From Sphingobacteriales bacterium (GTDB taxonomy: Bacteria; Bacteroidota; Bacteroidia; Chitinophagales; Chitinophagaceae): a stretch of DNA of 64,000 nt. Below, one piece after another: positions 2-22,742 of the stretch. The stretch lies in NCBI GenBank assembly GCA_016192105.1, contig JACPUV010000009.1, positions 3,311 to 67,310 on the forward strand, written 5' to 3'. The position numbers were made by a program, and so were the translations under genes. How positions within the stretch are numbered: position 1 is the stretch's first letter; each line of letters begins with the position of its first letter. The notes beneath the pieces were generated by a model. That model saw only the letters and a list, made by a program, of their open reading frames with translations. It was not told the origin of the DNA and made no database searches.

Positions 2-1513
2 TTATTCAGTCAATTCCAGAAAAAGAAGCAGGCACTGGACAGTATAAAAATGGAACTCACCAGGATTGAGTGGGTACTGGGGCCTGTAAAAAGAAGTGTT
101 GAAGATTCTGTTCGGTTATTAAAACAGCAACTTTCGCAAATTAAAGACCCTGCTGGTTTAAAAGCATTTATTAAGGAGCATAACCTGAGTACCCGGAATC
201 TGCCTAAAGGATGGCAGGCACTTTCGGCAATTCAGTCTATTGGAATAGGCAGAACCTGGGTAGATTACACAGAGTTAACAGTGCAGCATATTTCTCTGAC
301 GGGTGTGAATGCAGAGTTTACACCAGGCAGGTATTATATCGCATTTGCAGCGGGGCGTGTTAATTACCAGTTTCGTGATTTTGTGATTAAGAACAATTCA
401 CATGTCCGTCAAAATCTTTATCTGATCAGGGCGGGATTAGGTGCAAAGGAAGGCAATCACTTGATTGCTTCATGGTATGACGGAAGACGCAGTATGCTGA
501 ACTGGATAGGCAACATGACTTCGGGTACCGGCTTGGAAAGAGTGATCGGGATGTCGTTTGAGGCACGTTTACAGGCAAGTCCTGATCAATATATTGTGTT
601 GGAATCTGCAAAATCATCTTTTCATACAGTAGGGGCGCAAGATCAAACCGGGGAGAAACTGATCAATAGAGTATGGAACTTTAAAGACCGCAGCAATGAG
701 GCCTATAGTATCAGGGTATATAGTAATTGGAGGAGGACAAATACAAAACTCATGGGTTATTACAGGAAGATGGGAGAGCATTTTCAGTCCTTTAATTTAC
801 AACCGGTAAATGTGAATCAGGTTGCCTATCAGTTTAAGTTGCAACAGCAGTTTTGGAAGCGTCGTTTATCCGTGGAGGCCGGTATAAGAAAAAATGATTT
901 CTTCAACCCTTTTGTTAACCCTGGATTGGCCAGTAAGACAGTTTTCAAGTCTGCCCTGCTCACCCTTCGTGTACCCAGGTATCCCATGTTGTCAATTGGT
1001 TATTACCCGTCTTCTCAGCTTACAATGCTGGATAACAGCCGCCTGGTGGAAAACCAGTACAATACGCTGAGTGCTGTGATCAGTCATGCTTACAGTGTAA
1101 AAAAGCTGAGTATGAGTAGCAGTGCGGTGTTGTTGAAATTCTACAATAGCGGAGCGGATACTGGATTTATTTACTTTAATGCTACGAGTGTTTCGGTCAA
1201 TCATTTTATTTTTTTAAAGGGAGTGCAATTGCAAAGCGGACTGACACTGACCCGGCAACGGGATATAAAGGTGACCACCCTTGAGCAGTCTATGAATTAT
1301 CAGGTACGAGAGTGGCTTTCTCTTGTTGGCGGTTTAAAGTATAACAGGTTAAATGCAGCTCAAACCTTATTGGGTGCAACGGGTGGCTTTGGTGTGATGG
1401 TTAAAGGAATCGGGACGCTACAGGCCAGTTATGAAAAGAGTTATTTGCCGGGTACGACCCGGAATTTGCTACCGGTTGATATGGGTAGGTTGACCTTTTA
1501 CAGGGTGTTTTAG
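2..1513 (+). CDS. Putative outer-membrane beta-barrel protein, 5'-truncated by the window edge
   Basis: The frame of ORF 50..1513 is open back to position 2 (LFSQFQKKKQALDSIKM...). The C-terminal ~250 aa are alternating amphipathic strands rich in Y/F/G and end in ...GRLTFYRVF with a terminal Phe, typical of BAM substrates. Confidence 0.6.
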   Translation, partial: LFSQFQKKKQALDSIKMELTRIEWVLGPVKRSVEDSVRLLKQQLSQIKDPAGLKAFIKEHNLSTRNLPKGWQALSAIQSIGIGRTWVDYTELTVQHISLTGVNAEFTPGRYYIAFAAGRVNYQFRDFVIKNNSHVRQNLYLIRAGLGAKEGNHLIASWYDGRRSMLNWIGNMTSGTGLERVIGMSFEARLQASPDQYIVLESAKSSFHTVGAQDQTGEKLINRVWNFKDRSNEAYSIRVYSNWRRTNTKLMGYYRKMGEHFQSFNLQPVNVNQVAYQFKLQQQFWKRRLSVEAGIRKNDFFNPFVNPGLASKTVFKSALLTLRVPRYPMLSIGYYPSSQLTMLDNSRLVENQYNTLSAVISHAYSVKKLSMSSSAVLLKFYNSGADTGFIYFNATSVSVNHFIFLKGVQLQSGLTLTRQRDIKVTTLEQSMNYQVREWLSLVGGLKYNRLNAAQTLLGATGGFGVMVKGIGTLQASYEKSYLPGTTRNLLPVDMGRLTFYRVF

Positions 1514-1586
1514 GCAAAGGCACTGGGGATTTATCAGTTGGGTGTTAGACGTAAAAATCAGAAAACGAAACTTAAAAAATGCGGGT

Positions 1587-2693
1587 ATGCGTAAACTTTT
1601 AATGGCTGTGTTTTTCATTTTTGCTTCACTGGTCGGTGTGGCGCAGGTGTATATTCAGCCCACGGTACCAACGGTGGGGCTGGTGCAGAAAAGCCAGCTT
1701 TGGAATTTGGTATTGGTTAATGGTACAACGGCTTCCATAGAAGGAAGGCTGGAGTTGATTTTATTTGACCGTCAGAGTGGTCTTGAGATGTTTTCAGCTT
1801 CAACGAACCGGTTTACGTTATCCAAGGGTTCAATGACGGTTAATGTTACAAATTTAAATCCGGTACAATATAATTATCAGGCGATGGATGGTAGTGGGTT
1901 GCTTAATAATCTTTTACCAGCTGGTGCATACAGGGCTTGTTATTCATTTTCCATAGCAGATGGTAGTAAGGGAGATCCGCTAGCCCAGGAGTGTGTGATT
2001 TTTGATGTAGAACCGCTCAGTCCACCGATGCTTATTTTCCCAATGGACAGTGCATTACTGGAGACGATGCCTGGCCAATTTAGCTGGACTCCTCCTACCC
2101 CGGTTGGGATGTTCAACCGGCTGAGTTATGAAGTTTTTATAGCAGAGATTCAGCCCGGTCAAAAGGCGGATGAGGCGCTTCAAAATAACTTGCCATTTTA
2201 TAGTTCAGCTGGGGTGAATAGTAATTTTCTTTCTTATTCAGCGGCATTACCGGCGTTTGAGAAGGGGAAATGGTATGGGTGGCAGGTTGTGGCCAGGGAT
2301 GATAAAAACTACGCTTCCAGGAGTGGTACCTGGGTGTTCACGGTAAAGGAACCAGGGAGGGTGGAACAGTTGATCAAGGGCACTCCTTTTATGAAAATGA
2401 AACCTGGGGATGCGGAGTCTGGAATAGCGCCTAATGGTATATTAAAACTTTCCTACTATAACCGCTCGACGGATTCTACGGCGTGGGTTACGATAAGAGA
2501 TTTGTCTGCTGAATATGGGGGACAAAAACTCTCTGGATTTCAGGTAAAATTATTGCCTGGTGAAAACCAGATTGAGTATAAGTTAAAAAAAGTGATGGAG
2601 TTGTCAACTGAGCCAACCTATGAGGCAAGTATAGTAAACTCTCGGGGGGAGAAAAGTGTGGTATTGTTTCGGGTAATATATTTTAAGGACTGA
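1587..2693 (+). CDS. Exported Ig/fibronectin-III-like multidomain protein
   Basis: Likely start ATG 1587 gives the signal peptide MRKLLMAVFFIFASLVGVA|Q. Central segment PPMLIFP...FSWTPP...YEV...WYGWQV is Fn3-like. C-terminal beta-sandwich. Confidence 0.6.
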   Translation: MRKLLMAVFFIFASLVGVAQVYIQPTVPTVGLVQKSQLWNLVLVNGTTASIEGRLELILFDRQSGLEMFSASTNRFTLSKGSMTVNVTNLNPVQYNYQAMDGSGLLNNLLPAGAYRACYSFSIADGSKGDPLAQECVIFDVEPLSPPMLIFPMDSALLETMPGQFSWTPPTPVGMFNRLSYEVFIAEIQPGQKADEALQNNLPFYSSAGVNSNFLSYSAALPAFEKGKWYGWQVVARDDKNYASRSGTWVFTVKEPGRVEQLIKGTPFMKMKPGDAESGIAPNGILKLSYYNRSTDSTAWVTIRDLSAEYGGQKLSGFQVKLLPGENQIEYKLKKVMELSTEPTYEASIVNSRGEKSVVLFRVIYFKD

Positions 2694-2723
2694 TAAAACT
2701 GCAACCGTCAAACTATTTTCTGT

Positions 2724-5700
2724 ATGATTTTAGCGTTAGCCACCCGGCATTGTAAAAAGATTGCTTTTTTGCAGCTGTACCTGTTTTTTCTTTCTGGCCT
2801 TTGCTCATTTGTGTATGGTCAGGGTTCAGGTGTACAAGGAATTCATGTTGATTCAGGTAATCCCGGGTCATTAGCGGAGAGGAGCCGGCGTATGAGAACA
2901 ACACCTGGCGGGTTTGGCGGTGCTGAAGTGGCTACAAGTCCTGGGGAAACGGGGCCGGCGGTCGGGAATAATGAAAGAAAAACAAGCAGCAACCTTTTTT
3001 ACCGTGCTGTTGAGGGGGGTGGGCCATCACAGCCGGAGATGTCGGCTTTTAAGCCTGTGGGAGCTGATAATATGGTTGATCCGTTTACAGGTGATTTTTC
3101 ATACAATATTCCCTTGCTGGATGTGGGAGGTTATCCGGTAAATATATTTTATACCAGTGGGATAACGATGGATCAAGAGGCCAGCTGGTGCGGTCTTGGA
3201 TGGAATATTAATCCGGGAACCATTATGCGTAATATGCGGGGGTTGCCGGACGATTTTGATGGCCAGGATATTATTACGAAGACACAGTATACAAAGCCCG
3301 ATCATACCTGGGGTGTGAATACAGGTGGCAGAACGGAGATTTTTGGCGGTGCGGTCAGTCTTGGTATTGATGGGGGTATTTTTTATAACAATATGCGCGG
3401 CCTTGGGTTGGAAGCTGGAGTTAGTCCTGCGATCAGTATTGGTGGTAAATCGGGGGATGAAAAAACGGCTCCGCTGAGTTTTAGCTGGGGGATAAATGCG
3501 AACTCCCAAACCGGTGGAAGTAGCACGTTTAATATAGAATTGAAAAAAAATAATGAGAAGGCGCTGATTGGGGGGTATTCGGCAGGTATTGGTTTTCATT
3601 CAAGGCAAGGGCTTTCTGATCTGCATCTTAGTGCGCAGACCAACCTGATGAAAATACAGACGCAGAGTCAGTACGTAAATATGGCGGCAAACAACTTACT
3701 AAATCCGCAGTTAAGTACTGGGATTAGTTTTGCCTACCCTTCGTTTACCCCTTCGATGCGGGGACGGGTAAGTAGTATTAATTATGATCTTGATATGGGA
3801 TTTGGTGCGGCAACATGGGGTGCATTTAGCCATTTAAGACTTGGGGGATATTATACCCGGCGATGGATTAAAGCGGAGGATATTAAAACAGAGCAGCCTG
3901 CATATGGTATGTTATATCTAAAGAAGGGTCAGGAGGATAAAAATGCGCTGATGGATTTTAACCGCCTTAATGACGGTGTATATTCACCTGGAACACCGGC
4001 GATCTCTATTCCTGTATATACGTATGACGTGTATAGTATTAGTGGTGAGGGTACGGGGGGTAGTTTCAGGGCCTACCGGGGTGATTTGGGTTATGTACAG
4101 GATGCTCTTTTAGAGAACAGCGGGTCATCAGCACATCTGGGTTTTGAGATTGGGGGTGGAAGTTATGGGCATGGAGCCATTAATGCCAATGTTGTGTTGA
4201 CACCGTCTTCTTCTGGTGGTTGGGACAAGGGAAATCTGGCTAAATCTGTATTGCAATTCCGGCAATCGAATGTGGATACACAGGCGGTTTATTTTAAAAA
4301 TCCAGGTGAAAAAGCCATTCCTGATCTGGCTTATCAAAGTGCTGTAGGGGGTGAGGATCTGGTTCGTTTAAAAATGATTAACACGGGTATCGGCTCGCCA
4401 ACACTTGTTCCATCATTTGTAAGGTATTCGGATATGCTTCAAAAGACCACAGATTTGCCCTTTAGTAATAATTCAACGGTGAAGGTGCGGGATAGCCGTA
4501 CGCAGGTTATATCGTTTTTGACGGCCTGGGAAGCTGACCGTGTCGGATTGAACCGGAAAATAAATTATATCCGGTTGAATCAGGCTGATTCGAATCAGGT
4601 GGTATTTGGATGTGTTACTACATACAGGCAGTTTTTAAACCGGTATGAGGGGGGTAAAAATGCGATACGCCGTGAGCATCATATTTCTGAGATGGATGTG
4701 TTGATGCCCGACGGTAGAAAGTATGTTTATGATATACCGGTATATAATCTGAAGCAGGTGGAGGTGACATTTAATAAGAAAGGAAGTGGTGATGGAACGG
4801 GGACTAATGATCCTATAACTACGTATTCTCCTGGTGAGGATAACGAAGCGGGAATAAATACTCAGGGTAAGGACGGGTATGTAGAAAAACAGGAGATGCC
4901 TCCATATGCCCACTCCTACCTGCTGACGGCACTTCTTTCCCCTAACTATGTGGATGTAAAAGGAGATGGGATCACAGAAGATGATATGGGGGATGCAATA
5001 AAGTTCAACTACTCAAAATCTGATCAGAATCTAAAGTGGCGTACCCCGGCGGGGACGAATACGGCTAATATGAGTGAGGGGTTGAAAACAGACAAGAATG
5101 ATGACAAAGCGCACTATATCTACGGCGAACGGGAGCAGTGGTATTTATATTCCATTGAGTCAAAAAATATGGTTGCCAGGTTTTATGTTCGTAGTGACCG
5201 CAAGGACTCCCGGGCCGTGACGGGTGAAAACGGGACGCTGGATCCTGATTTTGGAGCCTATCGTTTGTCCAGGATTTCGTTGTTCACAAAAGGGGAGCTA
5301 TTAAAGAGACCTACGAATCCGAGGCCTGTAAAAACTGTTCATTTTGAGTATGATTATTCGCTTTGCCAGGGTGCGCCGGGATCAATAAGCGGGTACGGAA
5401 AATTAACCCTTCGTGCGATTTATTTTACCTATAACGGAAGTAACCGGAGTAAAAAGAACTATTATCGGTTTAATTATCCTGGCGATAAAAATCCTTCATA
5501 TAGTTTTAAGGCGAACGATCGGTGGGGGAATTATAAACCTGATATTGATATTGATCCGGCGAATGGTAATCCGGCAGGGCTTAGTAATGCTGATTATCCA
5601 TATACAAGCCGGGATGCCGGGAAAGCTGGTTCATATATTCAGGCCTGGACAATGAATCAGGTGATTCTTCCTTCAGGGGCTGCAATAAATATTGAGTATG

Positions 5701-8700
5701 AATCGGACGATTATGCTTATGTACAGGACAAACGAGCTTCAGCTATGGTTGCAATAAGTGGGTTTGGGAATACGGCTAATCCATCGGCTTACTCTTCCAA
5801 CTTATACGAAGGTGATAATTCAATAAATGATTATATCTATATAACAGTTCCCAGGGCAATTACGGCCACAACCGGGACTGCTATTAAGTCACAGATCAGG
5901 GATTGGTATCTGGGCAATTTTGATAAGAGCAAGCAGGTGTATTTGAAACTTGCCGTACAAATGCCTTCGGATCAAAACGGGAGTGGGTTTGAGATGATTC
6001 CGGTTTATGCAGAGGTGGAGGATTATGGGTTGATTGCTTCGGATGCCACTAAAACGAAGCTGTATATCAAGGTCAGGCGGTTATTATCAGATTATTCGCC
6101 GATGCTGCATTATAGTTTGCAATTTTTGAAATCCAATTTGGCTTCTAAGGCCTATCCGGGGTATGATGTAAGTGAGCAGGGAGGACTGAAGGCCGTGGTC
6201 AAATCACTGGGCGGGTTGTTTCATTCTTTTAAGGAGATCGTGAAGGGGGGAATGAAACTGATGGTTAGTGAAAATAAATGCCGCAGTGTTGATCTTGGTA
6301 AGTCCTTTGTGCGTTTGAGTGATCCGTTTCTGAAAAAGCCTGGAGGGGGAATCCGGGTAAAAAAGGTGACGATTAACGATAATTGGGATAAGCTTACAAA
6401 GAGTAGTCCTTCGGCAAGTGACGGAATGTTGAACGCTACCTATGGGCAGGAGTATTTTTATACAAAGACTGAACTGGTCAACGGAGAATTAATGACGATC
6501 AGTAGTGGTGTAGCCAGTTGGGAACCTGCTCAGGGGGGAGATGAAAATCCACATCGTCTGGCTATTGAGTATTATAACCGTACGCCCAAATCGGACTATG
6601 ATTACCAGGTGATGGAAACACCGCTTGCCGAGATGCTTTATCCTTCTGCGATGGTTGGTTACAGCCGGGTAGAGACAAGAAGTATCCACCGGGACACGGT
6701 AAAGAATGCGGCCGGAATTTCAGTTACAGAGTTTTTTACAACCAGGGAATTTCCGACCGTTTCTTCTTACACGCCATTATCGGAGCATAACGCGACGGAC
6801 AGTTATAAATCCGGTGCGCTTGATAAGCTGTTAAAAATGGATTTAAAGACAGCCGTTGCCCTCAGCCAGGGATTTAAGGTTGATTTAAATGACATGAATG
6901 GGAAGATGAAAAAGCAATCAACGTATTCACCTGAAAATCTACGGGACCCCATAAGTTATACGGAGAATTTTTACAGTATGCAGCCAAGTGGTGCAGGTCA
7001 GTTCAGGCTCAATCATAGTTTTCCGGTTATTGGAGGATCGGATGGTAAGATTGTGCAAAGTGTCATAGGACGGGATATTGAAGTGATGACGGATTTCCGG
7101 GAGCATAAGCAACTGACCATTACCACCAACATCAATTTTAATGTGGATGTTATTAACGGAGCTTTTATTCCGATCCCTGTTCCAACGACCTGGAAGCCGG
7201 TTATGAAGGAGTCAAATACCTACCGGTCTGCTTCTGTGTTAAAGATTGTAAATCATTACAGTATACTGGACAGCGTAGTGGCGGTGGATAAGGGCAGTAT
7301 GATCAGTACAAAGAATATGGTGTATGATGCGCAAAGTGGAGACCCGCTGTTGACAAGAACCAGTAATGAGCATCATCAGCCAGTGTATAGTTTTTCTTAC
7401 CCGGCGCATTGGGCATATAGTGGGATGGGATTTGCCTTTAAAAATATTGATGTGGTTTACAGGGGTTTGACTTTCCGAAATGGAAAACTGGATGCGCATC
7501 CTGATGTTAAGTTAGGGCTTTTTGAAAGTGGGGATGAGTTGATGGTTGAGTCGCAGCAGGCGCTGGGCCCCTTGGGTAAGAATCCCTGTGAGCCTTTGTT
7601 GTTGCCCAAGAGTTCAGCCAGGAAGATCTGGGCTGTTTACACAGGTAGAACCGGAAGTGCAACCCCGCAATGGGTGTTTATGGATGCGGATGGGAATCCC
7701 TATTCTGCGGCAAATGTATCGGTTCGGATTATCCGTTCTGGCAAGCGAAATATGTTCAGTGCCGGATTGGGAGGCGTGGTGAGTTTGAGCAATCCGGTTA
7801 ATCCGGTTTCAGGTCAACTGGAGTTTACCGATGCAACCAGTATAATTCAAACCTCAGCTGCAACGTATAAAGACCATTGGCGGGTTGATAACAGTTTATT
7901 TAAAGTGGATAGTATAGCCGGAACGGTTACCAGGACCCTGGTATATCCACAAGCTGTATATGATAGTAATCCTGAATCCATGACTGTTACTAGTGATGAG
8001 AACGTGTATAGTTTTTCATCCAATCAATATGTTACGGCCAGTGATTTGAAGCGGTCAAATGGCAGTACAAGGATCAGAAAATCATTTGTAAAGTATAGTG
8101 GTCTTGAATCTTTTTTGAATCTGCATCTTGACCCTTCCTGTTTGATTAGCAGTACTAATCCTGTTACTAACGCATATACGGCTTTTATAGGTTCGTATGC
8201 GCATGGATGTTATGTTTCCGGTCAGTTTACCCCGGTCGCGCACGCAGGGGTGCATACAGCACCCGAAGCCTGGATTGGATATTATTCACAGGCTAACCCG
8301 TATGGAAATAAGAGTGTATTAAAACCGCTGCGGAGTAGTTGGAATGATGCTGGGAATACATCTGGCTGGATTTCGGCGTATCAGTCAACCGGTAGCGTTA
8401 ACCAGTATGCCTTTTCAAAGGTTGACTTAAGTTATGCGCCTGTATCGGGTAATTTTTCATGGAATGGCGATTCCTATCATATTGGGCATTTGATCCGGCA
8501 AATGATGGCTGAGCGGAATAGTGGAATTATTAATCCGGCTGCGTTTTCGATAGAAATTTTCCGCCCCCGACCTTCAGTATATAATGGTGGCAGGGAGGAT
8601 ATGAAATGTTCCTACAGAGTTAATCCGGGATGTGTTGCGTCGCAGGGGCTTTGGTTTCAGTATTATCCTTGTACGGGTGGGAAGATAGAGTCATTGGTAA

Positions 8701-10478: not shown

Positions 10479-10502
10479 AAACTGGTTGATGGGAATGACA
10501 TT

Positions 10503-11339: not shown

Positions 11340-11647
11340 TATTTGACAAAGAGGATACTAGAAGATTATGCAGGGTTGAGGGAAGTATAAAAACTATCAG
11401 GAGAGTGTTTTATGACAAGTGGGTGGTTGGTGAAAACTCTCTTAATAATATCAGGGTATTTTTTCAATTTTTCCTGTGGTGATTGTACCCGGGCGAAAAG
11501 TATCCTTTGACTAAGAAGAGTTTATTAAATTCTGTATAGGCATTTTCCGGTTATCAATTGGTAGCTGAAAAATACTTATTCGAAAAAGATGGCATTCTTG
11601 GGGTTTGGGGCAATTATATAATCGTTTTGGAAATTAATTATAGTACT

Positions 11648-14600
11648 ATGTTTTTACAAGCAGGACGCAGGCTGATAATGGCAGCCGTTTTAATGCTGGT
11701 TCATGTAGCCATGTATGCAGGCAATAATCCGGAGTACCGGCAGACTTTGTTTGGAAAAAACGGTCAATTAACGGCGGGGGCGCAGCTTTATACGTTTGAT
11801 ATTAACTATGAAGCCTATAAAAACAGCCCGGGGACTATAGAGAAGACCTGGTATGTAAAAAATGCCGTTCGGTTGATGGTTGACGAGGAAAGCTCCTGGT
11901 TTATAGCGTCAGATTTTATTGCAACGATCAAGCTTAATATTAGTTCAGAAAATGCGGCTGGCGTGGTTACCACTCATCCGCAAAAGACGCTGACTATAAA
12001 TTACAAGACTGGAGAAGGTCAGATTTCGGATGCGATCAGTTCTTATGAATTCCGGGATGCGGTTAAGGTGACTGTTACAATAGCCGAGGCGGTGACAAAA
12101 AATGTTAGTTGGGATGTAACAAAAAATCTGAAGTTGGTAAACGAGATCGTTTCACTTCGGGATTGGGGATTTAATTGCAGTTCAGTGATTAGTGGAATAG
12201 TTACCGATAGTTTGTTTTATGATGAGTGGAAGGTAAAATGGAATGTGCCAGCCAATTTTCAGACAGAGTACGATGTAGAGTGGGCCTGGGTAGATGAGTC
12301 GGCAGTGCCGGAGTATACGTTTAACGGGGTGGTGAATCTGGACAGTGTGTTTGACAATAATGCTACAAGAGTGAGTACTTCGGGTAATTTTTACCGGATT
12401 CCGCTTTTATATGAAGATGAGGGGAGATTGTATATGCGGGTCAGGATGACGCAGGATAAGGTGAACGGACAACGGGTGGAGGGAAACTGGTTTTATCTGA
12501 TGGACGGGGGACAGGCTTATTTGCCAAGAATTGCGGGTCAGGGCCATCAGGATAATCTGAACTGGCAGGCTACAACCTCATATGCGGAGGAAGGCAAGCG
12601 AAAAACGGTTATTCAGTATTTTGACGGCACCCTCCGGGGCAGGCAGACGGTGACAAAGGATAATGTGACCCGCAGTACTGTAGTAGCCGAATCATTTTAT
12701 GATTACCAGGGCAGACCGTTGATCCAGGTGCTACCCTCTCCCACGCTTGGGACGATCTTGCAGTTTACCAAGAACTTCAATCAGTTTGATGATACCCGTA
12801 ATGCAAAAACGGTATATGATAAGCTGGATGTGAATCAAAGTGCCTGTGGTAAGTTAACGGCTGCCATGAAGACCACTGCCACGGGCAGTGCGGCCCAGTA
12901 TTATTCTGGGAGCAATCCATTTGCAAATGACGGATTTAATAAGTTTATTCCGGATGCGGGTGGTTATCCTTATACAGAGACCCGTTACACCCGTGATGGA
13001 ACAGGCCGGATTGATGCACAAGGGGGTGTGGGGCAGGTGTTTCAGGTCAATGGTGGCCGAGATACAAGGTATTTTTATGAGAGTGCAGATCAGGATGATC
13101 TGGATGCCTTATTTGGCACGGATGCCGGGTATGCGTCGCATTATTCAAAGACCTGGGTCAGGGATGCCAATGGACAGTATAGTGTAAGTTATGTTGATAT
13201 GAGGGGCAAAACCGTGGCTACGGCACTTGCAGGGGATAATCCTGGTAATCTTCAGGCCCTGCCATCATATGCCTCAGCTCAAAAGACCATTACCCGCCAA
13301 TTGATTGATGGGGAGACTAATAATGTTCATGGCAATTCAATTGTTTCATCAAAGTCGCTGGTTGTTCCCAAGCAAGGCAGTTATACGTTTAATTATGCAC
13401 TATCTCCTGAGAAGCTAAAACTGCTTCTTTGTAATGGTGTTCAGTTTTGTTTTGATTGTCAGTATGAACTGAATATTAGTATCATACCAGATTGTTCGGA
13501 TAAAGTAATTCCTGGGTTTACAAGTCCTGTGGTAGTTAAGAACTTTACAATAGGAGAATATTTAACCTCCTGTGTGGGAAATAATGCGCCAGGTATAAGT
13601 ACCCAGTTTACGGTAACACTGCCTGAAGGGGGATATACAGTGGTTAAGGAATTAAAAATGAATACGGCTGCCCGGGATTGGTACCGGGAGAATGTGTACC
13701 TGACCAATGACACCTGTAAAACTAAGGCCAGTTTTATACAGCAGCAGTACCAGCTTGCCCTCGGTCAGCAGAACTGTTATACCAGTTGTACGCAGTGTAA
13801 TGCTATCCTGGGTACGGAATCACAGTTTATAGATCGTTTTCGCACGGAGTCCGGGTTTACCCAGGCGCAGATAGATGCGCTGATGCCGCAGTTGCAGGCT
13901 GCGTATGCGGAGGCAAAGGTGGGATGTGATAGAATTTGTGATAATGGAGGTAATGAGACGCTGGATGAATTAAACAGTGTCCGTGAAATCATGCTTCAGG
14001 ATGTTACGCCATTGACGGGACAATATGGACGTTGGGATGAAACTAATCTGACGGTGTCAATGAGGCCATATAATATTTTTAGCTCAGCCCCTCAGGTTAG
14101 TTTTTGCTTGGGAGCTCCGTCAGTGCTCAGGCAGCCTTATCGTTATCCAGTGGATTATTCGGTAGCGACGGGTGCGGTTGTCTGTAATACGGAAGGATAT
14201 AAGAATGGATATGGTCTGGTGACGCTTTCTACGAACAGGGTGCAAAACATAAACTTTACACCCGATAGCCTGGCCGATAATTTTGAGCAGAGCTATGCCT
14301 ATCAACTGTTGCCCTATCATCCAGAGTTTCCAAAGCTGAAATTTGTGGAATCAAATCTGAAGGGAACCTACCGGTTTGGGGGCAGGCTTCTGGGTACAGA
14401 GACCTGGAGCCAGGCGGTTAGCCGTGGTTTTATTCAAAGCAGTACAACGAGTGCCACTGTAGCGGCTGATTTTCTGATGCAAAAAGATTCTTTTTTTATC
14501 AGGACCGGATTTACGCATCCTTTGTATTACCAGATGCGGGATGCCATTACGAGTAATTATATAGCGGCTAATGCGCAGTGTGGTTCACCGGCTCTGGGTA

Positions 14601-17600
14601 TGTGGCAGCTTGCAAAATACAGTGTTTTTTGTAGCAAGGAGATCCGGGAAAACGGAGGCCAGATAGTAAACAATGGCTGTTTTACGGTGAACCCGGTATT
14701 GAGTGCCTGTCTGAATAGTCAGAATAATCTGCCTCCATCCGCGCTGAGTCATTGCGATGCGGATATGGATAGGGTCTGGAAAAATTTTAAAGCGCTTTAC
14801 AACTCTTATCGTAATATCCTGATCAGTAAGTATATAACTGACAATGTCGCTGGAATTGATTACAGCATTTTTGATCCCGCCAGCGGCAATAATTATCAGG
14901 AGCGTTTTGTACGCTATACCAGCACCCCGCCTTACACGCTGATCAATATGAGTGATTTAGGTGGACTTTTTACAAGTAGTGCTGATCCTGGCAGCTATAG
15001 TAATGTATCTTCCCTGGAGGCTGATAGTATATGCCGGTCAAACAGTGGTAACTGGATGATCAGGCTCCGGCGTTGTCCACAGGTACAGACACTGGCACAA
15101 TCACAATCTGCACAATGGATAGCTGACTCAAGTTGGTTAAGCAAATACCTGGTGGACGTGTGTAAACAGGGCGTAGATTATATGGGGCATCCTTTTGGGG
15201 CGGCCAGTGTTCCGGATAGCAAGCCATCTATCCAAATACTTACCAACCCAGATGGTGTATCTGTAAGTGGAGTTTTCGTCCGCAGTTTTCCGGATATAAT
15301 CCGTTATTACCTGATATACCGGTTTGGGAATAATGTAATGAATCAGTTTTGTTACCCGGAGTTGATTGACTATCCCAAGGCGTATAATCAGGCGCCTGCT
15401 ACAGTATCCACACCCATTGTAACAGTTCCGGAGCCATGTGTTTGTGACCGGATAAATTATTATAAAACAAAATGGCAGATGGCCGGCAGTCCCGGAACGT
15501 TTAGTAATTATCTGCTTAACACACAAGGGACCGTGATCAGTGCTGATACGTTGAATATGCTTCTGGGGATGTGTAATACCGGCTATACCACCCAGAGTCC
15601 CAATTGTAATTATTTACCGGCGCCGGTAAAAATCCCGGCAATTTTCCAATGCCGAGGCACAGCCAGCCTTGATTCATCAAAGACCTGTATCTCGTGCGCA
15701 GATTATACAGCGATAAAGCAACAGTTTTTAGCCGAACGGGGGGTAACTGCACCTTACAATACTCCACAAAACGAGACTGAAGTAGCATGGAATCGTTCAT
15801 TTGCAGAATATGCCAACTACCGAACCGGTTTTGGTAAGAACTGGCCGGAGTATGTGCAGTTTGGAATTATATGCGCAAATGACAGTACGTTGAGTTGTAC
15901 TAACCTGACAAGCCTGGTAACGGCTTGGCAGGCAACCAATCCTCCCCAGACTGGCGACAGTTGCCGGAGCAGTTTTACGCAGTATATGAATTATCATACA
16001 GGCCGCAGTTTATCATTTAATCAATGGATGGATGAGTTTGTTAAAGCCTGTGGGGCGAAACCGCCCGTTTGTCAGCCGGTGCTGACTTGCATGAAACTGG
16101 AGTCACTTATTAATTCTTATTATCAGTATTATGGTTATCAGATCTGGCGGAATAGTAATTGTCAGACCCTGTTTACCCAATTTATCAATGATTCCTTGTA
16201 TAGCAATTACACTTACCAGGACATCATAAATAACTACAATTTCCTGTGTGGGGGGGTATGCCCGCTTAATATTTGTAGTTTCCCGAATCCTCATTTGCTG
16301 ACATTGATGTATAATACGTTCCGGACCCAGCAATATCAGGGCGGATGGACACTAACGCAGTGCCAGGATAATTTTACCAGTTGGTTTAATACCCAGTTGG
16401 GCTTTACCTCCAGTCCATATACCTGGACGGGGATTACGGAACTGTATCAATTGTACATGGGTAAGGAGAGTTGTGTGCCGGATATTAATCAGCTTTGTGC
16501 CCCGCCCTATTCGTGCAGTCAGTTGGATTATATCAGACAGCAGTTTTATGCTCAGAATCCGGGAGTAGATAGTTTGAGCAATTGCCAAAGCCTGTTTACA
16601 GCTTATTTTAACCAGCAATTGGGAACAGGGTACAATTTTTCAGAAATCCAGACCCTGTATCAGGCCATTTGTCAGAGTACGCTTTTGGTATGTACAGGAG
16701 CAACGCTGGATTGTAAGGCGATGATTTTGTTTACGCAGACTTATACTCCTTGCGCTTTTGGGGATGAGTGTGTTTGTTTTTTGAATGCCTTTAATACCCA
16801 GTTTGGAACCAGTATTGCAACGTATGCTCTGTTGCAACAGTACTATCTGGATCATTGTGGATTTGTATTGAATATATGTCCGGTGGAATCGCCTGTATTT
16901 ACATGTGAAATGCTTCAGGCGACATTGCAGAAGTTCAATAAACTATATCCCGGTGGTGGCGCTGGCCTGGGGGCAGATTGCCAGCTGTTTTATGCTGCAT
17001 TTTTTAATAATACGTATGCGGTAAAATATTCTTTTTCTGCAATTAATGACCTATACCTCGTGCAATGTGGTCAGGGGTTACAGGTTTGTCAGAGTCAATG
17101 CGGAGAGTATATCAACTTTGTTGATAATTATATGAGCCGCTATGGCGGGTTAAATATTCCTCTGGCAGCCCGCAGACAGCTTTTTGAGAGCCTGTTTAAT
17201 AGTGCTTTTGGTTATACGGGTGGTGCATCTGAGGAAAAAGGAGGTTTTGCCGGAGGAGGAAACAGTCCGCTTGTATATGCACAAATTAAGTCGCTGATGG
17301 CGGGTTGTCTTACTATGCCTTCAAGTCTGGAAGCTGAGAATCTGTATCTCAGTTTAAATGATCCAGCGGTACTTCGGGACTTTAAGACCGCCTATTACCT
17401 GCGTTATCCGGCTGGTGTTCCGCTGGATTGTCAGAACGATTTTGCGGCCTGGGTGAACTGGAGCATGGGGGTAAATATGACGTATTGCCAGTTAATTGAC
17501 TTGTATAACGGCTTGCTGGGAGCGGGTGCTGGTGATATATGCGGGGCCTCACCCATCTGTGCAGGTGCGGGAGCTGTTGATGATGGAAAAGGCATTGTAA

Positions 17601-20600
17601 TCGGTGGTGGAGGCTCTACTGCCGTAAGTTATCCCCCGATGCTTTGCGGGCTGAATGAGGAGATATTTACACCCCCGCCAGTGGACACGAGTACCTGTAA
17701 AGATCCGTTACAGTTTGCCATTCGAGATGCAAATGTGAAGTGGGAACTGTACCTGGATAGTCTGCGGCGCGGTTTTGATACGGCTTATATCAGTAAGTGT
17801 ATGGGAGCCAAGTACCTGGAAAGCTTTACGGTATCGTTTACCCGGTCGGAGCATCATTATACGCTATATTATTATGACCAGGCGGGGCAACTGGTGAGGA
17901 CAGTTCCTCCGGAGGGTGTGGAAGACCGTAGAGCGGATGTGGCGTTTTTAGCTAGTGTAAAATCGGCCAGAAACAGTAATCAGGCAACGCCAGTAAGGCC
18001 GTCTCACAGTCTTGCTACTGATTACCGGTATAATACACTGGGTCAGGTTGTGCAGCAAAAAAGCCCTGATGGCGGGCTCAGTAAGTTCTGGTATGATGCC
18101 CTGGGAAGACTGGTGGTAAGCCAGAACGCTAAACAACTGGCGGAAGGCAAATATAGTTATACACTTTACGACGGCCTTGGCCGTATCAGCGAAGTGGGGC
18201 AAAAGCCGCAGGGAACAGTAATGACGCAGACGATCAGCCGAAACCAGACTTCCCTTGCTGGTTGGATGGCGGCAGGCAGCAGTAAGGAGCAAATAACCAG
18301 AACGGTGTACGACCGGAGCTATTTTGATGGAGATGATCTGCTGAGTCCTGAAAAGCTGTCTCAGCGCAACCTGCGTAACCGGGTAAGTTATACCCAGGTA
18401 TTCGACGTGCAGCCAGCTGCCAATAATTATATTGGTACCCACCGGGCGGCGACCTATTATTCCTATGACATACATGGCAATGTAGATACACTGCTTCAGG
18501 ATTATGGTAGTGCGTCGTACTACCCCAATATCATGAACCAGAATAATAACCGGTATAAAAAAATTGCGTACAACTATGACCTGATCAGTGGGAAGGTAAA
18601 TATGGTGAGTTACCAGCCGGGTTATGTGAATCCGTTAACCGGATTGTGGGTGAATAACGCCGACCGGTTTTATCACCGTTACAGCTATGATGCGGAGAAT
18701 AAGCTTACCGATGTATTTACCAGTCATGATAGTTTGATTTGGGAGCGGGATGCGAGCTACAGTTATTACAAACATGGCCCACTGGCCAGAACGGTACTGG
18801 GTCAGCAGCAGGTACAGGGCATTGACTATGCCTACAACCTGCAAGGATGGCTGAAGGGTGTAAATGCTACGGCGGTTGGTGATGGAACTTATGATATGGG
18901 GCAAGATGGTAAGATTGGAGGTTCTAATGCACTGATAGCCCGTGATGCTTACGGGTTCAGCATGAATTATTTTACAACAACCATTAACAGTGTTGCTGTT
19001 AGCGATTACAAAAGTATAAATACGGGTGTAACGCCTTTTGTAGCAATAAATAATGCTAATGCCAACACAGGGAAGCCCCTTTTTAACGGAAATATCTCGT
19101 CATTTGTCGTAAATATTCCGAAATTAGGTGAAGCAAAAGTCTATCAATACGGGTATGATCAACTGAATCGTTTATTAGCGGTAGATGTATTTGAAGGAAT
19201 AAATATCACCACCAACAACTTTACACCCGTGGCGTTGAATGATTACAAAGAAAGACTGACTTATAGCGCTAACGGCAACATACAATCATATTTACGCAAT
19301 GGCTCAGGTGCAACGGTAAACTTGAACAATTTCAGCTACAGCTATACTAGCGGTACTAACAGGCTTGCCAGTATTAACAATAGTGTCAATACACAAACAA
19401 GAACATACAGCTATGATGCCATTGGCAATACCACTGCCGATGGTATGCAAGGGGCTACCAACATTTTATGGAATGTGTATGGCAAGGTGCAAAGCCTGAC
19501 CAATGGGCAGGGGCAGTCTGTAAGCTACACGTATGATGGAGGTGGAAACCGGATTAGTAAGTCTGTGGCGGGTACAACTGAGTGGTACGTGAGGGATGCC
19601 AGTGGAAATAATATGGCTACTTATACAGAAACCGGGACAATAAACAACGGTAATCTTACTGTGATGGAGTGGTACAAATATGGTAGTGGCCTTCTGAGCA
19701 TCAGTACAATGCGAGTTAATATGGAGCAATCTGCCACTGGAGATATTACTATCATGCAGCGAGGAAATGATGGGTACATCCTGACCGATCACCTTGTGAA
19801 TACTAGGGTTGTGATAACTGACCGGAAGTTGCAACACACAGCTAATGGCACGACGGTGGATTATTATATAACGGATGTGAAAACATCATCTTATTACAGC
19901 AGTTACGGAGCTACTGCAAAGTCATATAATCAACAACCTCTTGTAGCCTTCAACGGTCAGCGAAAGAGCAATGAGATTGGAGCTGATGCGCAAACGGCAT
20001 TGTATTGGGAGTATAATGGGGATGTGGGTAGAAGGTGGAATATTGATCCTATTTATAAGAATAGTCCTTATAGCGTATATGGAGGAAATCCAGTCTGGAA
20101 GATGGATTACAACGGACTTGATACGGTTAGTAATTGGCAGGATGCAAAAAAAGGCGATGTTTGGGGAAATGTACGCGGCAATTCTACTTTTTGGTATGAA
20201 TTTGATGGTGAAAAATGGAACAGCAAAGGGACGACAGAAATAAGCCCACTTCAAGAAATTGTTGTTGTTGCAAAACAAACTGACTCCAAAAAATGGGTTA
20301 ATAGTAATTTTCAATTAGCATTTGTTGGATTAGTTTCAAACAAGACAGCTATTCCAACTATTGAAGCATTGCTTGAAGGAACGGGAGTAAGTTTAGCTGA
20401 AGCCGAATTGTCGTCGTTTAGATTTTTAGGGCCCGCAGCAGCAATTGCCACACTTCCATTTACATTATCGAGCGATAACATATCTCAACCAGATTTAATA
20501 AGGCAGACAGATCAAATTATAAATGAATATTTAAAAAAAGGAGATTTGGCTGGGGCTCAATCTTACATTGAAACTTATAACAGAGATAGAGGAAGGCAAG

Positions 20601-20953
20601 GGTATAGTAAGATAGTATTTAGATATATGTCCCTAGGTGAGTATAATAGTAGGTTAACCCCAGATGGGGATTTGCCACAAGCATTGCCATTTGATGCGTC
20701 TAATGATTTTGTTACAAAGTATATTACGCCAGATATATATTTGACGAGCAAAGGAGCAAAAACATACCTAGCTCTCCCAAGGGCACCAGATATTGCAATT
20801 TGGACATATGAAGTTGAAATAGCAGCTACAAAAATGCCGGCAACAGGTTATCAAATTGTAAAACCAAAACACCGTGAACCTGGTGGTGGCAGGGAAGCAA
20901 CAATCCTACAACCTTTTCCAATCCATGGTTTTTTTCCATTAATACAAGAATAA
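11648..20953 (+). CDS. Giant RHS-repeat polymorphic toxin with Cys-rich insertion and C-terminal toxin tip
   Basis: Likely start ATG 11648 (MFLQAGRRLIMAAVLMLVHVAMYA|G; the track starts at 11558). DUF6443-like QYFDG..R..Q...YDYQGR. YD repeats from about 17850. Core end GRRWNIDP...SPYSVYGGNPVWKMDYNG, followed by a 277-aa variable tip. Confidence 0.85.
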   Translation: MFLQAGRRLIMAAVLMLVHVAMYAGNNPEYRQTLFGKNGQLTAGAQLYTFDINYEAYKNSPGTIEKTWYVKNAVRLMVDEESSWFIASDFIATIKLNISSENAAGVVTTHPQKTLTINYKTGEGQISDAISSYEFRDAVKVTVTIAEAVTKNVSWDVTKNLKLVNEIVSLRDWGFNCSSVISGIVTDSLFYDEWKVKWNVPANFQTEYDVEWAWVDESAVPEYTFNGVVNLDSVFDNNATRVSTSGNFYRIPLLYEDEGRLYMRVRMTQDKVNGQRVEGNWFYLMDGGQAYLPRIAGQGHQDNLNWQATTSYAEEGKRKTVIQYFDGTLRGRQTVTKDNVTRSTVVAESFYDYQGRPLIQVLPSPTLGTILQFTKNFNQFDDTRNAKTVYDKLDVNQSACGKLTAAMKTTATGSAAQYYSGSNPFANDGFNKFIPDAGGYPYTETRYTRDGTGRIDAQGGVGQVFQVNGGRDTRYFYESADQDDLDALFGTDAGYASHYSKTWVRDANGQYSVSYVDMRGKTVATALAGDNPGNLQALPSYASAQKTITRQLIDGETNNVHGNSIVSSKSLVVPKQGSYTFNYALSPEKLKLLLCNGVQFCFDCQYELNISIIPDCSDKVIPGFTSPVVVKNFTIGEYLTSCVGNNAPGISTQFTVTLPEGGYTVVKELKMNTAARDWYRENVYLTNDTCKTKASFIQQQYQLALGQQNCYTSCTQCNAILGTESQFIDRFRTESGFTQAQIDALMPQLQAAYAEAKVGCDRICDNGGNETLDELNSVREIMLQDVTPLTGQYGRWDETNLTVSMRPYNIFSSAPQVSFCLGAPSVLRQPYRYPVDYSVATGAVVCNTEGYKNGYGLVTLSTNRVQNINFTPDSLADNFEQSYAYQLLPYHPEFPKLKFVESNLKGTYRFGGRLLGTETWSQAVSRGFIQSSTTSATVAADFLMQKDSFFIRTGFTHPLYYQMRDAITSNYIAANAQCGSPALGMWQLAKYSVFCSKEIRENGGQIVNNGCFTVNPVLSACLNSQNNLPPSALSHCDADMDRVWKNFKALYNSYRNILISKYITDNVAGIDYSIFDPASGNNYQERFVRYTSTPPYTLINMSDLGGLFTSSADPGSYSNVSSLEADSICRSNSGNWMIRLRRCPQVQTLAQSQSAQWIADSSWLSKYLVDVCKQGVDYMGHPFGAASVPDSKPSIQILTNPDGVSVSGVFVRSFPDIIRYYLIYRFGNNVMNQFCYPELIDYPKAYNQAPATVSTPIVTVPEPCVCDRINYYKTKWQMAGSPGTFSNYLLNTQGTVISADTLNMLLGMCNTGYTTQSPNCNYLPAPVKIPAIFQCRGTASLDSSKTCISCADYTAIKQQFLAERGVTAPYNTPQNETEVAWNRSFAEYANYRTGFGKNWPEYVQFGIICANDSTLSCTNLTSLVTAWQATNPPQTGDSCRSSFTQYMNYHTGRSLSFNQWMDEFVKACGAKPPVCQPVLTCMKLESLINSYYQYYGYQIWRNSNCQTLFTQFINDSLYSNYTYQDIINNYNFLCGGVCPLNICSFPNPHLLTLMYNTFRTQQYQGGWTLTQCQDNFTSWFNTQLGFTSSPYTWTGITELYQLYMGKESCVPDINQLCAPPYSCSQLDYIRQQFYAQNPGVDSLSNCQSLFTAYFNQQLGTGYNFSEIQTLYQAICQSTLLVCTGATLDCKAMILFTQTYTPCAFGDECVCFLNAFNTQFGTSIATYALLQQYYLDHCGFVLNICPVESPVFTCEMLQATLQKFNKLYPGGGAGLGADCQLFYAAFFNNTYAVKYSFSAINDLYLVQCGQGLQVCQSQCGEYINFVDNYMSRYGGLNIPLAARRQLFESLFNSAFGYTGGASEEKGGFAGGGNSPLVYAQIKSLMAGCLTMPSSLEAENLYLSLNDPAVLRDFKTAYYLRYPAGVPLDCQNDFAAWVNWSMGVNMTYCQLIDLYNGLLGAGAGDICGASPICAGAGAVDDGKGIVIGGGGSTAVSYPPMLCGLNEEIFTPPPVDTSTCKDPLQFAIRDANVKWELYLDSLRRGFDTAYISKCMGAKYLESFTVSFTRSEHHYTLYYYDQAGQLVRTVPPEGVEDRRADVAFLASVKSARNSNQATPVRPSHSLATDYRYNTLGQVVQQKSPDGGLSKFWYDALGRLVVSQNAKQLAEGKYSYTLYDGLGRISEVGQKPQGTVMTQTISRNQTSLAGWMAAGSSKEQITRTVYDRSYFDGDDLLSPEKLSQRNLRNRVSYTQVFDVQPAANNYIGTHRAATYYSYDIHGNVDTLLQDYGSASYYPNIMNQNNNRYKKIAYNYDLISGKVNMVSYQPGYVNPLTGLWVNNADRFYHRYSYDAENKLTDVFTSHDSLIWERDASYSYYKHGPLARTVLGQQQVQGIDYAYNLQGWLKGVNATAVGDGTYDMGQDGKIGGSNALIARDAYGFSMNYFTTTINSVAVSDYKSINTGVTPFVAINNANANTGKPLFNGNISSFVVNIPKLGEAKVYQYGYDQLNRLLAVDVFEGINITTNNFTPVALNDYKERLTYSANGNIQSYLRNGSGATVNLNNFSYSYTSGTNRLASINNSVNTQTRTYSYDAIGNTTADGMQGATNILWNVYGKVQSLTNGQGQSVSYTYDGGGNRISKSVAGTTEWYVRDASGNNMATYTETGTINNGNLTVMEWYKYGSGLLSISTMRVNMEQSATGDITIMQRGNDGYILTDHLVNTRVVITDRKLQHTANGTTVDYYITDVKTSSYYSSYGATAKSYNQQPLVAFNGQRKSNEIGADAQTALYWEYNGDVGRRWNIDPIYKNSPYSVYGGNPVWKMDYNGLDTVSNWQDAKKGDVWGNVRGNSTFWYEFDGEKWNSKGTTEISPLQEIVVVAKQTDSKKWVNSNFQLAFVGLVSNKTAIPTIEALLEGTGVSLAEAELSSFRFLGPAAAIATLPFTLSSDNISQPDLIRQTDQIINEYLKKGDLAGAQSYIETYNRDRGRQGYSKIVFRYMSLGEYNSRLTPDGDLPQALPFDASNDFVTKYITPDIYLTSKGAKTYLALPRAPDIAIWTYEVEIAATKMPATGYQIVKPKHREPGGGREATILQPFPIHGFFPLIQE

Positions 20954-20957
20954 TTAT

Positions 20958-21380
20958 ATGAAAAAGTATGTTATTTATACAGAATTAAGCGCTGATGAAT
21001 TTGATGTTATTAAGTCTAGGCTTCGTTTGATAGAGGAAAATAATTTTGTGTTAATGAAAGCAAATGAATTTAGTCAGAATTTAAGAGATTATAACGATGT
21101 TTTGTCCGTAGATTATATACATGAGGACAATGTGTTTTATGGCAATATTGGGTTTTCTTATGTAGAAGAGAAAAGTTCATTTGATCAAAGATTGTTTTGT
21201 GTATATATATTGAAAGCGTTTGATGAAAATGGCTCTAGATATTTTAAAAGGAGAATCTTTGAGAAATTATATAACTTGGAGGATTTAATTTCTCAATCTT
21301 CTCAGATTCTAAGTGATTGCTTGGAATATTATCGTAAATTAGAAAAAAGTGATTTAACAGAGCATATTAATCTCAAATAG
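20958..21380 (+). CDS. Candidate immunity protein for the RHS tip
   Basis: 140 aa, starts 4 nt after the RHS stop, very AT-rich like the tip, no signal peptide. The call rests on position only. Confidence 0.6.
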   Translation: MKKYVIYTELSADEFDVIKSRLRLIEENNFVLMKANEFSQNLRDYNDVLSVDYIHEDNVFYGNIGFSYVEEKSSFDQRLFCVYILKAFDENGSRYFKRRIFEKLYNLEDLISQSSQILSDCLEYYRKLEKSDLTEHINLK

Positions 21381-21448
21381 ATTAATATGCTCTGTTAAAT
21401 GAATGACGGACTGGAGTTTATCTGTGAGACAGCTGAAGCAGTAGAGTT

Positions 21449-21701: not shown

Positions 21702-22112
21702 CTATCTTTTTTTCAGCATTTCTTCCAATAGGGCCACTTTTTGCTTTTCGGATTCCAGGAGGCGCTCATACAATTTTTTAATTTCTTCTAATGATTCAAG
21801 CCATTTTTCGATGGGATTAATGGAATAATGATTTATGTAGTTCGCTCCTTGGTTTTGCGATCCCTCATAATTGTTCTGGATATTAAAAACCGCGACTTCC
21901 TCATCAAAATTTATCAGCGCTTCTGCCGGTACTTTTAGTGCTTTTGCAATTTTTTCCAGGAGCTCGGGTTCAATCACTTCTTTTTGTTCCAGCAGGGAGA
22001 TTTTTTTTTGAGTCCAGTCATCGCCCAGTTCAATGGCAAGGCCTTCTTGTTTGAAGCCAAGCATTTCTCTAAACCGTTTGATATTTTTACCCTGGTGAAT
22101 GATTTTTTCCAT
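21702..22112 (-). CDS. XRE-family HTH transcriptional regulator (Bacteroidota type)
   Basis: MEKIIHQGKNIKRFREMLGFKQEGLAIELGDDWTQKKISLLEQKE...IAKAL.VP. Likely start 22112 (track 22166). Confidence 0.9.
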   Translation of the reverse strand: MEKIIHQGKNIKRFREMLGFKQEGLAIELGDDWTQKKISLLEQKEVIEPELLEKIAKALKVPAEALINFDEEVAVFNIQNNYEGSQNQGANYINHYSINPIEKWLESLEEIKKLYERLLESEKQKVALLEEMLKKR

Positions 22113-22270
22113 ATCGACTAATGGTTTTGAATAGTCAAATATACTAAAATCTAAAAGCAGCCGCAAAAGCGGCTAAATTACCGGTTGGAATAACTATGTT
22201 ACCTGCGTTTTGCATGGATTACTGTATTAGTCATCCTGAATTTTAGAAAAAAAAGGTATGGCAACTGATT

Positions 22271-22740: not shown

Positions 22741-22742
22741 CC

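Follow-up and report, generated by a model that had tools for sequence, protein, structure and literature searches.

In the competition among bacteria RHS toxins are a major weapon, and we know of no mechanism by which a diderm bacterium that has no type VI secretion system (T6SS) delivers them. The question is raised by a stretch of 64,000 nucleotides from a Sphingobacteriales bacterium (assembly GCA_016192105.1, contig JACPUV010000009.1, positions 3,311 to 67,310), which is referred to as the window. Six co-oriented open reading frames (ORFs) occupy positions 2-21380 on the + strand and form a cassette that encodes, in order, an outer-membrane β-barrel, an immunoglobulin (Ig)-like protein, a very large protein (giant A), a LolA3-family protein, a second very large protein with RHS repeats (giant B) and an immunity candidate. 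All six had been listed in a first-pass annotation of the window and all were confirmed. The same annotation had proposed that the two giants form a split, Tc-like shell that leaves the cell by a dedicated route of its own. The answer favoured here is a different one, for which the balance is about even: the cassette would be a Sec-dependent cell-envelope RHS toxin system acting against other bacteria, and its export would be aided by a type IX secretion system (T9SS) by way of tagged partner proteins. The coordinates of the features are collected in Table 1.

Giant B matches Pfam RHS_repeat and the YD repeat model TIGR01643, and weakly the Rhs core model TIGR03696 (17.7 bits). A profile of its last ~870 residues before the tip recovers 8h8a (E 1.9e-14), Tse5, 7q97, a teneurin-like protein and the YenC2 core, and these matches to solved Rhs proteins, together with the repeats and the core, uphold the earlier identification of giant B as an RHS protein. 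The likely start codon is the ATG at 11648, which gives a protein of 3101 residues, the length of the database copy. In 27 complete homologues the core ends in an aligned, conserved motif that is predicted to be of the aspartyl cleavage type. Beyond this motif the tips, of 230-310 residues, are mutually unrelated with a mean column identity of 11%, so that the variable tips claimed at first pass are indeed present behind a conserved core. Tlde1, phage lysozyme, TreTu, NucA/NucB DNase, YkuD and lipase domains are found in the tips of homologues and, going by these domain assignments, the tips are an antibacterial repertoire.

The tip of the window's own giant B has no match in Pfam or the PDB, and the search for its relatives gave one related giant only and no informative homologue. 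The related tip, in another genome, is 53% identical and is followed by a 144-residue protein that is 33% identical to the product of gene 6 (E 7e-17). Because the gene 6 homologue travels with the related tip, a toxin-immunity pair is supported, and the call of gene 6 as an immunity candidate stands. Giant B contains 67 cysteines, about 60 of them within residues 600-2100; the first-pass annotation had read this part as a helical repeat of ~60 residues with four Cys, of which the clustering of cysteines is confirmed. This insertion is missing from the compact versions of 1400-1490 residues that are found in distant lineages, which (at ~1400 residues) still have the complete layout of head, shell, core and tip. 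Both giants had been described as very rich in cysteine, which is correct for giant B and incorrect for giant A, where 19 are found in 2584 residues. As far as sequence can tell, nothing is missing from giant B as an RHS polymorphic toxin: it is self-contained, its tip is exchangeable and its cognate immunity gene is adjacent.

With the known Rhs/YD toxins (the T6SS-linked RhsA, Tse5 and Tre23, and WapA) giant B shares its YD repeats, a core with a cleavage-type motif, the exchangeable tip and the downstream immunity gene, and with WapA of Bacillus subtilis it also shares a Sec signal peptide. It differs from them in its DUF6443 head, a Cys-rich insert of 1500 residues, a non-RHS partner of 2584 residues and private envelope proteins. 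The Rhs effectors of the T6SS are linked to PAAR, VgrG and the T6SS itself, whereas the genome that carries the cassette has no PAAR, VgrG or T6SS and its giants bear signal peptides. In contrast to toxins of the WapA type, the host of the cassette is diderm and an outer membrane must be crossed.

All five exported proteins carry a Sec type-I signal peptide, as judged by eye on the translations. Such peptides had been reported for the four complete upstream genes, where they were seen again, and the full-length barrel has one as well. Four of the five have Gln at position +1, which is typical of Bacteroidota, and inspection of the translations by eye found no lipobox in any cassette protein.

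The partner of the toxin is giant A. At least 560 loci with relatives of giant A are present in species-representative genomes, and a sample of the phylum evenly drawn (301 Bacteroidota genomes, 143 genera) contains a relative in 27 genomes (~9%) and 20 genera. In the protein database these relatives make up more than 5000 clusters, the only names being 'hypothetical protein' and 'PA14 domain-containing protein'. Numbers of this size far exceed chance, and thousands of the proteins are metagenomic. Fourteen diverse loci with both giants were taken from the phylum sample, and giant A adjoins giant B in all 14; judged by this adjacency, giant A is an obligatory non-RHS partner of the toxin. The PA14 domain is the sole domain of giant A recognised in Pfam, NCBIfam and PDB searches. 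It matches the PA14 domain of RsgI3 in the PDB (E 4.6e-20 by sequence and 1.5e-32 by profile) and is a probable glycan-binding module.

Residues 95-1290 of giant A were modelled with AlphaFold2 from an alignment of 35 sequences, with a mean predicted local distance difference test (pLDDT) score of 70 and scores of 80-90 over residues ~650-1250. In Foldseek the model reaches a probability of ~1 only with small transmembrane barrels (the designed TMB10, KdgM, OmpW and the NalP translocator), and giant A probably carries its own N-terminal membrane barrel, preceded by an invariant motif of ~80 residues. A predicted N-terminal barrel joined to a very long C-terminal lectin arm makes giant A comparable to the inverse autotransporters (type Ve: intimin and invasin). 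However, there is no sequence homology to these proteins, the ~80-residue invariant motif stands before the barrel of giant A, and the Foldseek matches are to barrels of 8-14 strands, with a probability of ~1 and template modelling (TM) scores of 0.4-0.5.

The barrel encoded by gene 1 is of a different kind. Its AlphaFold2 model (mean pLDDT 79.7) consists of 4 + 22 = 26 strands, with a helical hairpin of ~200 residues inserted between strands 4 and 5. Foldseek gives generic large-barrel matches only (FimD usher, LptD, TonB-dependent receptors and MtrB, all with TM ≤ 0.37), and sequence and profile searches of Pfam, curated families and the PDB give none. Similarly, the window's Ig-like protein has no match in the curated families or, by sequence and profile, in the PDB. 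A Pfam scan of 47 homologues assigns DUF928 to 17 (weakly), Ig_Rha78A_N to 12 and Por_Secre_tail to 2 (weakly). The first two of the three domains form a DUF928-like module, which is the barrel's partner. In other families, with no giant A gene nearby, relatives of the barrel adjoin larger proteins whose N-termini correspond to domains 1-2 of the Ig family, and in one genome barrel and Ig module are fused as a single protein of 954 residues. Because the pair occurs outside toxin loci and is fused once, the barrel and Ig domains 1-2 are, on the evidence of gene neighbourhoods, an independent, physically coupled and older two-part module. The toxin-free barrels have no helical hairpin and the toxin-free Ig proteins no third domain; by this comparison both are additions specific to the cassette.

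Examples of the pair outside RHS toxin loci are L123:6924-9788 (genome G215) and the loci L124 and L125 (G247 and G196). At their C-termini the toxin-free Ig partners bear domains of other kinds, such as an RCC1 propeller. Outside the toxin loci the pair looks like a general, undescribed surface module composed of a barrel and its partner. The predicted number of strands is that of the barrels in LptD-LptE and MtrB-MtrA, and a small cognate partner is likewise always encoded beside the barrel and is fused to it in one genome. The likeness of fold to LptD and MtrB is nevertheless generic.

Gene 4 scores 103.5 bits against LolA3_fam (cut-off 83) over model positions 3-232 of 232, which bears out the LolA-like call of the first-pass annotation. 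Sequence and profile searches of the PDB gave no match for the window's LolA3. The family exceeds its cut-off in six of 41 related genomes, in each of which the order is giant A, LolA3, giant B, and in five of the 301 genomes of the phylum sample, all five of which carry giant A. In four of these five LolA3 lies inside the cassette, and in the fifth it is on a separate contig of a fragmented assembly. The six LolA3 proteins align too divergently to serve as a seed for scanning loci. The two top-scoring proteins are from Flavobacterium, and in a complete Flavobacterium genome four large genes are followed by LolA3 and then by a DUF6443 protein of 3954 residues, an order that fits the numbering Fjoh_0601-0606 around LolA3 of Flavobacterium johnsoniae (Fjoh_0605). 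This protein belongs to the same NCBI family as gene 4, and the Flavobacterium members sit between pieces of giant A and giant B. In the text available for PMC11885536, Fjoh_0605 is a periplasmic LolA paralogue of unknown function that is left as an orphan, and this source and PMC13103446 describe, in their accessible parts, a more polar cavity and no pairing with LolB. A Porphyromonas gingivalis 'LolA3' also appears in the accessible part of PMC13103446. A toxin-cassette context of LolA3 is not mentioned in the searchable text of either source.

How constant the helper genes are depends on the loci compared. Counts were made on the best 80 of the at least 560 giant A loci, mostly from Chitinophagaceae, using for each gene only those loci with room on the contig. 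The Ig gene lies upstream in 69 of 71, the barrel in 51 of 61, a LolA3-like gene in 62 of 68 and giant B in 64 of 65, with a constant order, and in these loci the five genes behave as the one conserved unit that had been described. Of the 14 diverse loci, five encode a homologue of the barrel (hhalign > 90%) and nine do not; eight have a LolA3-like gene, and in the other six no LolA3 is recognisable. In three barrel-less variants an FG-GAP propeller protein with a T9SS type-A C-terminal domain (CTD) is encoded directly upstream of giant A; one of these proteins reaches 25.8 bits with Pfam Por_Secre_tail, near the cut-off of 27. At a fourth locus that lacks the barrel, a CotH-kinase protein that clearly matches Por_Secre_tail (51 bits) is encoded upstream. 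The claim of a dedicated export route is thus weakened, because the giants often occur without the barrel or LolA3 and the variants have T9SS-tagged neighbours; the tight synteny holds for the Chitinophagaceae-type loci. Both observations go part of the way towards refutations that the first-pass annotation had itself named.

The genome of the window has a full T9SS, with GldK, SprA and 45 type-A plus 19 type-B CTD cargoes. Whole-genome model searches found no T6SS sheath (VipB), no secretin and no T2SS-family ATPase, and, as noted at first pass, there is no PAAR, VgrG or TcA beside the cassette; the giants themselves contain no PAAR domain. A CTD profile was built from the genome's own 45 type-A CTDs, and the three domains of the Ig family were compared with it in turn by hhalign. 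For the last ~95 residues of the family the alignment has a probability of 96.2% (E 2e-9, 71 columns), compared with 0.1% and 14.5% for the other two Ig domains and at most 4% for the tails of giant A, the barrel and LolA3. The tail of the Ig protein may accordingly be read, at the level of family profiles, as a remote relative of the T9SS type-A CTD. PF18962 and TIGR04131 have no match within the cassette. The tail of giant A reaches at most 4% with the type-A and type-B CTD profiles, and giant B ends in its toxin tip, which confirms that neither giant has a T9SS tail, as had been stated.

SprA is present in all 27 giant A carriers of the phylum sample, and giant A is absent from each of the 64 genomes that lack SprA, an association that is consistent with T9SS dependence and is not proof of it. 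A folded RHS shell is far too wide for a barrel of 26 strands, while SprA, with a pore of 36 strands, serves for the export of very large folded proteins. The T9SS is favoured as the exit because the 26-strand pore is too narrow and SprA is the only large translocon in the genome, and dependence on it is considered likelier than an autonomous route. Several of the genes around lolA3 also reportedly figure among the proteins that F. johnsoniae secretes by way of the T9SS (Kharade and McBride, 2015). As in T9SS cargo with partners (SprB with a barrel of the PorP/SprF type), the cassette has a barrel beside very large surface proteins and, in the Ig protein, a partner whose last domain may be CTD-like; the FG-GAP partners of other variants have genuine CTDs. 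In contrast to SprB, its giants have neither type of CTD, and its barrel has 26 predicted strands and a coiled coil and is not detectably like PorP/SprF or PorV.

In the mechanism proposed, all five proteins would reach the periplasm via Sec. Giant A would be anchored in the outer membrane by its small N-terminal barrel, with a long exposed arm whose PA14 lectin binds the target, and LolA3 would be a periplasmic chaperone private to the cassette. Plugged or capped by the Ig protein, the 26-strand barrel with its periplasmic helical hairpin would form an outer-membrane platform. The folded, disulfide-rich giant B would reach the surface with the help of the T9SS, as opposed to a self-sufficient new pathway, and the T9SS would be recruited by the CTD-like tail of the Ig protein in cassettes such as that of the window and by the genuine CTD of the FG-GAP partners in other variants. 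Contact with a target would finally cause the Rhs core to release the tip.

Several points weigh against this mechanism. The likeness of the Ig tail to a CTD is found at the level of the family profile only, the window's own Ig sequence giving 2.8% and the median member 8%; the Pfam Por_Secre_tail matches are weak and limited to two of the 47 members, and the last domain may be a plain Ig fold that serves another purpose. Neither giant has a CTD, and piggy-back export through the T9SS is, to our knowledge, not an established mechanism. The co-occurrence with SprA is weak, as 63 of the 64 SprA-less genomes come from one family. The barrel of giant A is drawn from a model of mean pLDDT 70 and local Foldseek matches with TM 0.4-0.5, and the orientation of the helical hairpin is inferred. 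When lolA3 was deleted in F. johnsoniae, no phenotype was seen in gliding or in the T9SS, the secretion reported on being that of amylase (PMC11885536); this neither supports nor contradicts a toxin-specific role.

The alternative that survives best is that the barrel, the Ig protein, LolA3 and giant A form a self-sufficient, undescribed secretion or display pathway that is free of the T9SS, and it is considered unlikely. The strict synteny of five genes in Chitinophagaceae-type loci would be expected of such a pathway, as would a barrel of large lumen that matches no known family and a helical hairpin that is specific to the cassette and absent from barrel relatives outside toxin loci; giants with no CTD in a genome with no T6SS or T2SS point in the same direction. 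Against this stand the diverse loci in which the barrel or LolA3 is missing and T9SS-tagged partners are found instead, the existence of the barrel-Ig pair in toxin-free settings and the presence of SprA in every sampled carrier. The pore is a further obstacle, as 26 strands cannot pass a folded, disulfide-bonded RHS shell. That the barrel, its DUF928-like Ig partner, LolA3 and giant A are an unrecognised machine that exports the folded toxin of 3100 residues without a T9SS, T6SS or type II secretion system (T2SS) is more doubtful still.

Passive release of the giants, through lysis or in outer-membrane vesicles, with the barrel, the Ig protein and LolA3 merely assembling giant A, is given a small chance. 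It would require no translocon of proven capacity, of which the cassette has none, and the content of chaperone plus barrel does resemble a set for the assembly of outer-membrane proteins. Tips that act on peptidoglycan or lipid could, moreover, work from outside with no injection. However, the DNase tips and the EF-Tu-modifying TreTu tips, combined with a cytoplasmic immunity protein, argue for entry into the target cell, and the invariant adjacency of giant A and giant B, together with the PA14 lectin, argues for directed delivery of the contact type.

A Tc-like BC cocoon split into two genes, in which giant A would be the TcB and giant B the TcC, is very improbable and, on the homology searches described here, is already refuted at that level. 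Like the Tc BC subcomplex (TcB-TcC; YenB-YenC2), the cassette has adjacent giant genes, the second of which ends in an Rhs core and a hypervariable toxin, and the YenC2 core aligns to the core region of giant B. By eye, an N-terminal motif of giant A is also SpvB-like and the last hairpin, in its tail, is YD-like, the latter being below the thresholds of the YD hidden Markov model (HMM) and the RHS profile. In contrast, the Pfam and NCBIfam scans give no RHS, YD or SpvB match in giant A, and the SpvB model (PF03534) finds nothing anywhere in the genome at E ≤ 1. The YD HMM matches giant B and its paralogue and does not match giant A. Comparison by hhalign of the giant A family with the RHS region of giant B has a best probability of 4.5%, and Foldseek of the model of residues 95-1290 against the PDB returns no Tc or Rhs chain. 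By these searches giant A was ruled out as a TcB/SpvB shell half. Nothing that resembles TcA is found among the cassette genes or their neighbours, both giants have signal peptides, and the tips appear to be antibacterial, all of which differ from the Tc systems. The shell of giant B needs no second half, because its compact versions are already complete from head through shell and core to tip, and the two-piece YD shell proposed at first pass is abandoned. Finally, next to no credence is given to the idea that the T2SS-like type IV filament machine of Bacteroidota carries the cassette as its cargo, since a 100% complete genome with two copies of the cassette has no T2SSE-family ATPase or secretin and such a machine is thus not required here.

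The barrel gene is cut by the edge of the window, and its true start lies 884 nt before it (contig C2:2427-4823). Between the start of the contig and this gene there are small unrelated ORFs only and no adaptor gene; the upstream sequence, which the first-pass annotation could not see, shows that the cassette begins with the barrel gene and that no TcA, T6SS or T9SS adaptor precedes the window's copy. The intergenic gaps are, in order, 28, 30, 24, ~300 (measured up to the likely ATG of giant B) and 4 nt. The hairpin at the end of gene 6 is likely to be the terminator of the operon. It is unique in the window and hence distinct from a mobile 20-bp palindrome at 22621-26583. A scan for sigma-70 promoters gave fewer sites than shuffled sequence, the Bacteroidota consensus being different from the one scanned.

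The same genome contains a second full cassette (contig C20:41597-61596, locus L116), with a barrel of 777 residues, an Ig protein of 362, a giant A of 2299, a LolA3 of 278 and a giant B. Further downstream of this copy, a fragment of an RHS core at C20:36226-36594 is possibly an orphan tip module. Beyond the window's cassette, positions 21702-26472 have a GC content of 0.35-0.42 and encode a helix-turn-helix regulator (minus strand), a Mutator-family transposase of which a C-terminal remnant is left, a 353-residue ORF and a large serine recombinase of 557 residues; this stretch is possibly the edge of a mobile island that bears the cassette. The recombinase and transposase neighbours, the patchy distribution and the second genomic copy suggest that the cassette is horizontally mobile. 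At 29879-30730 (- strand) an isolated ORF of 283 residues, unlinked to the cassette, contains a single RHS repeat, found by Pfam at E 2.7e-8, and a stretch that resembles DUF2283. In the other genome with the related tip, a sigma-70 factor and a coupling protein of the TraG/TrwB type come after the cassette (L126:14752-19350), which hints at the context of a conjugative element.

Table 1. Features of the RHS toxin cassette in the window, and the genes that take the place of barrel and Ig protein in three variant loci.
Feature	Coordinates	Strand	Remarks
Gene 1, outer-membrane β-barrel	2-1513	+	3' 503 codons of 798 aa; full ORF and AlphaFold2 model
Gene 2, Ig/Fn3-like three-domain protein	1542-2693	+	likely ATG 1587; translation, Pfam on homologues
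Gene 3, giant A	2724-10478	+	2584 aa; signal peptide; non-RHS partner of the toxin
Giant A, small membrane-type barrel (predicted)	3258-3905	+	residues ~179-394; Gly-rich amphipathic strands, 10-12 predicted
Giant A, PA14 domain	9519-9830	+	residues 2266-2369; Pfam E 1.9e-12
Giant A, C-terminal tail	10281-10475	+	~65 residues; near-invariant alignment columns across the family
Gene 4, LolA3-family periplasmic protein	10503-11339	+	signal peptide; likely start M10; NCBIfam NF053579 LolA3_fam
Gene 5, giant B, RHS polymorphic toxin	11558-20953	+	signal peptide; ORF of 3131 aa from TTG 11558
Giant B, DUF6443	12569-13075	+	residues 338-506; Pfam E 3e-5 (homologues 5e-11, 1.8e-10)
Giant B, Cys-rich insertion	13355-17857	+	residues ~600-2100; Cys counts per 200 aa
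Giant B, RHS/YD shell and Rhs-associated core	17855-20119	+	YD motifs at residues 2104-2659; ends in cleavage-type motif D-x-N/D-G-L/A
Giant B, variable C-terminal toxin tip	20120-20950	+	277 aa; variable across homologues
Gene 6, cytoplasmic immunity candidate	20958-21380	+	140 aa; no signal peptide; co-varies with tip
Terminator-like hairpin	21353-21399	.	perfect 20-bp stem, 7-nt loop; overlaps stop codon of immunity gene; unique in window
FG-GAP-CTD genes replacing barrel/Ig	L110:4800-6932, L111:14283-16535, L115:13146-15461		hhalign 89-97%

The six-gene Bacteroidota cassette is real and widespread and apparently unpublished. The literature searched contains no description of an RHS cassette with LolA3. 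DUF6443 was not found in it, and among the locus tags Fjoh_0601 to Fjoh_0606 only Fjoh_0605 appears, in the LolA paper and a preprint; the tags are absent from the supplements of two T9SS papers, and those of the LolA paper contain Fjoh_0605 only. The present analysis contributes the failed Tc tests, the barrel-Ig module outside toxin loci and the one case in which it is fused, the Ig tail that resembles a CTD at family level and the FG-GAP partners tagged with a CTD. It also excludes the T2SS-like machine in a genome with two copies and places the published LolA3 inside the cassette.

For the question of RHS delivery raised at the outset, the cassette provides a defined and genetically tractable set of genes. 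It supplies a first functional context for LolA3, which is left as an orphan in the accessible text of PMC11885536 and PMC13103446, and it introduces two large uncharacterised families, one of them giant A, the other the barrel of 26 strands together with its Ig partner. If, contrary to the reading favoured here, the cassette were a machine free of the T9SS, the toxin-free barrel-Ig pair would be a general new module for surface display. The reading in which the T9SS aids export suggests instead that this system may move untagged giant proteins by means of tagged partners.

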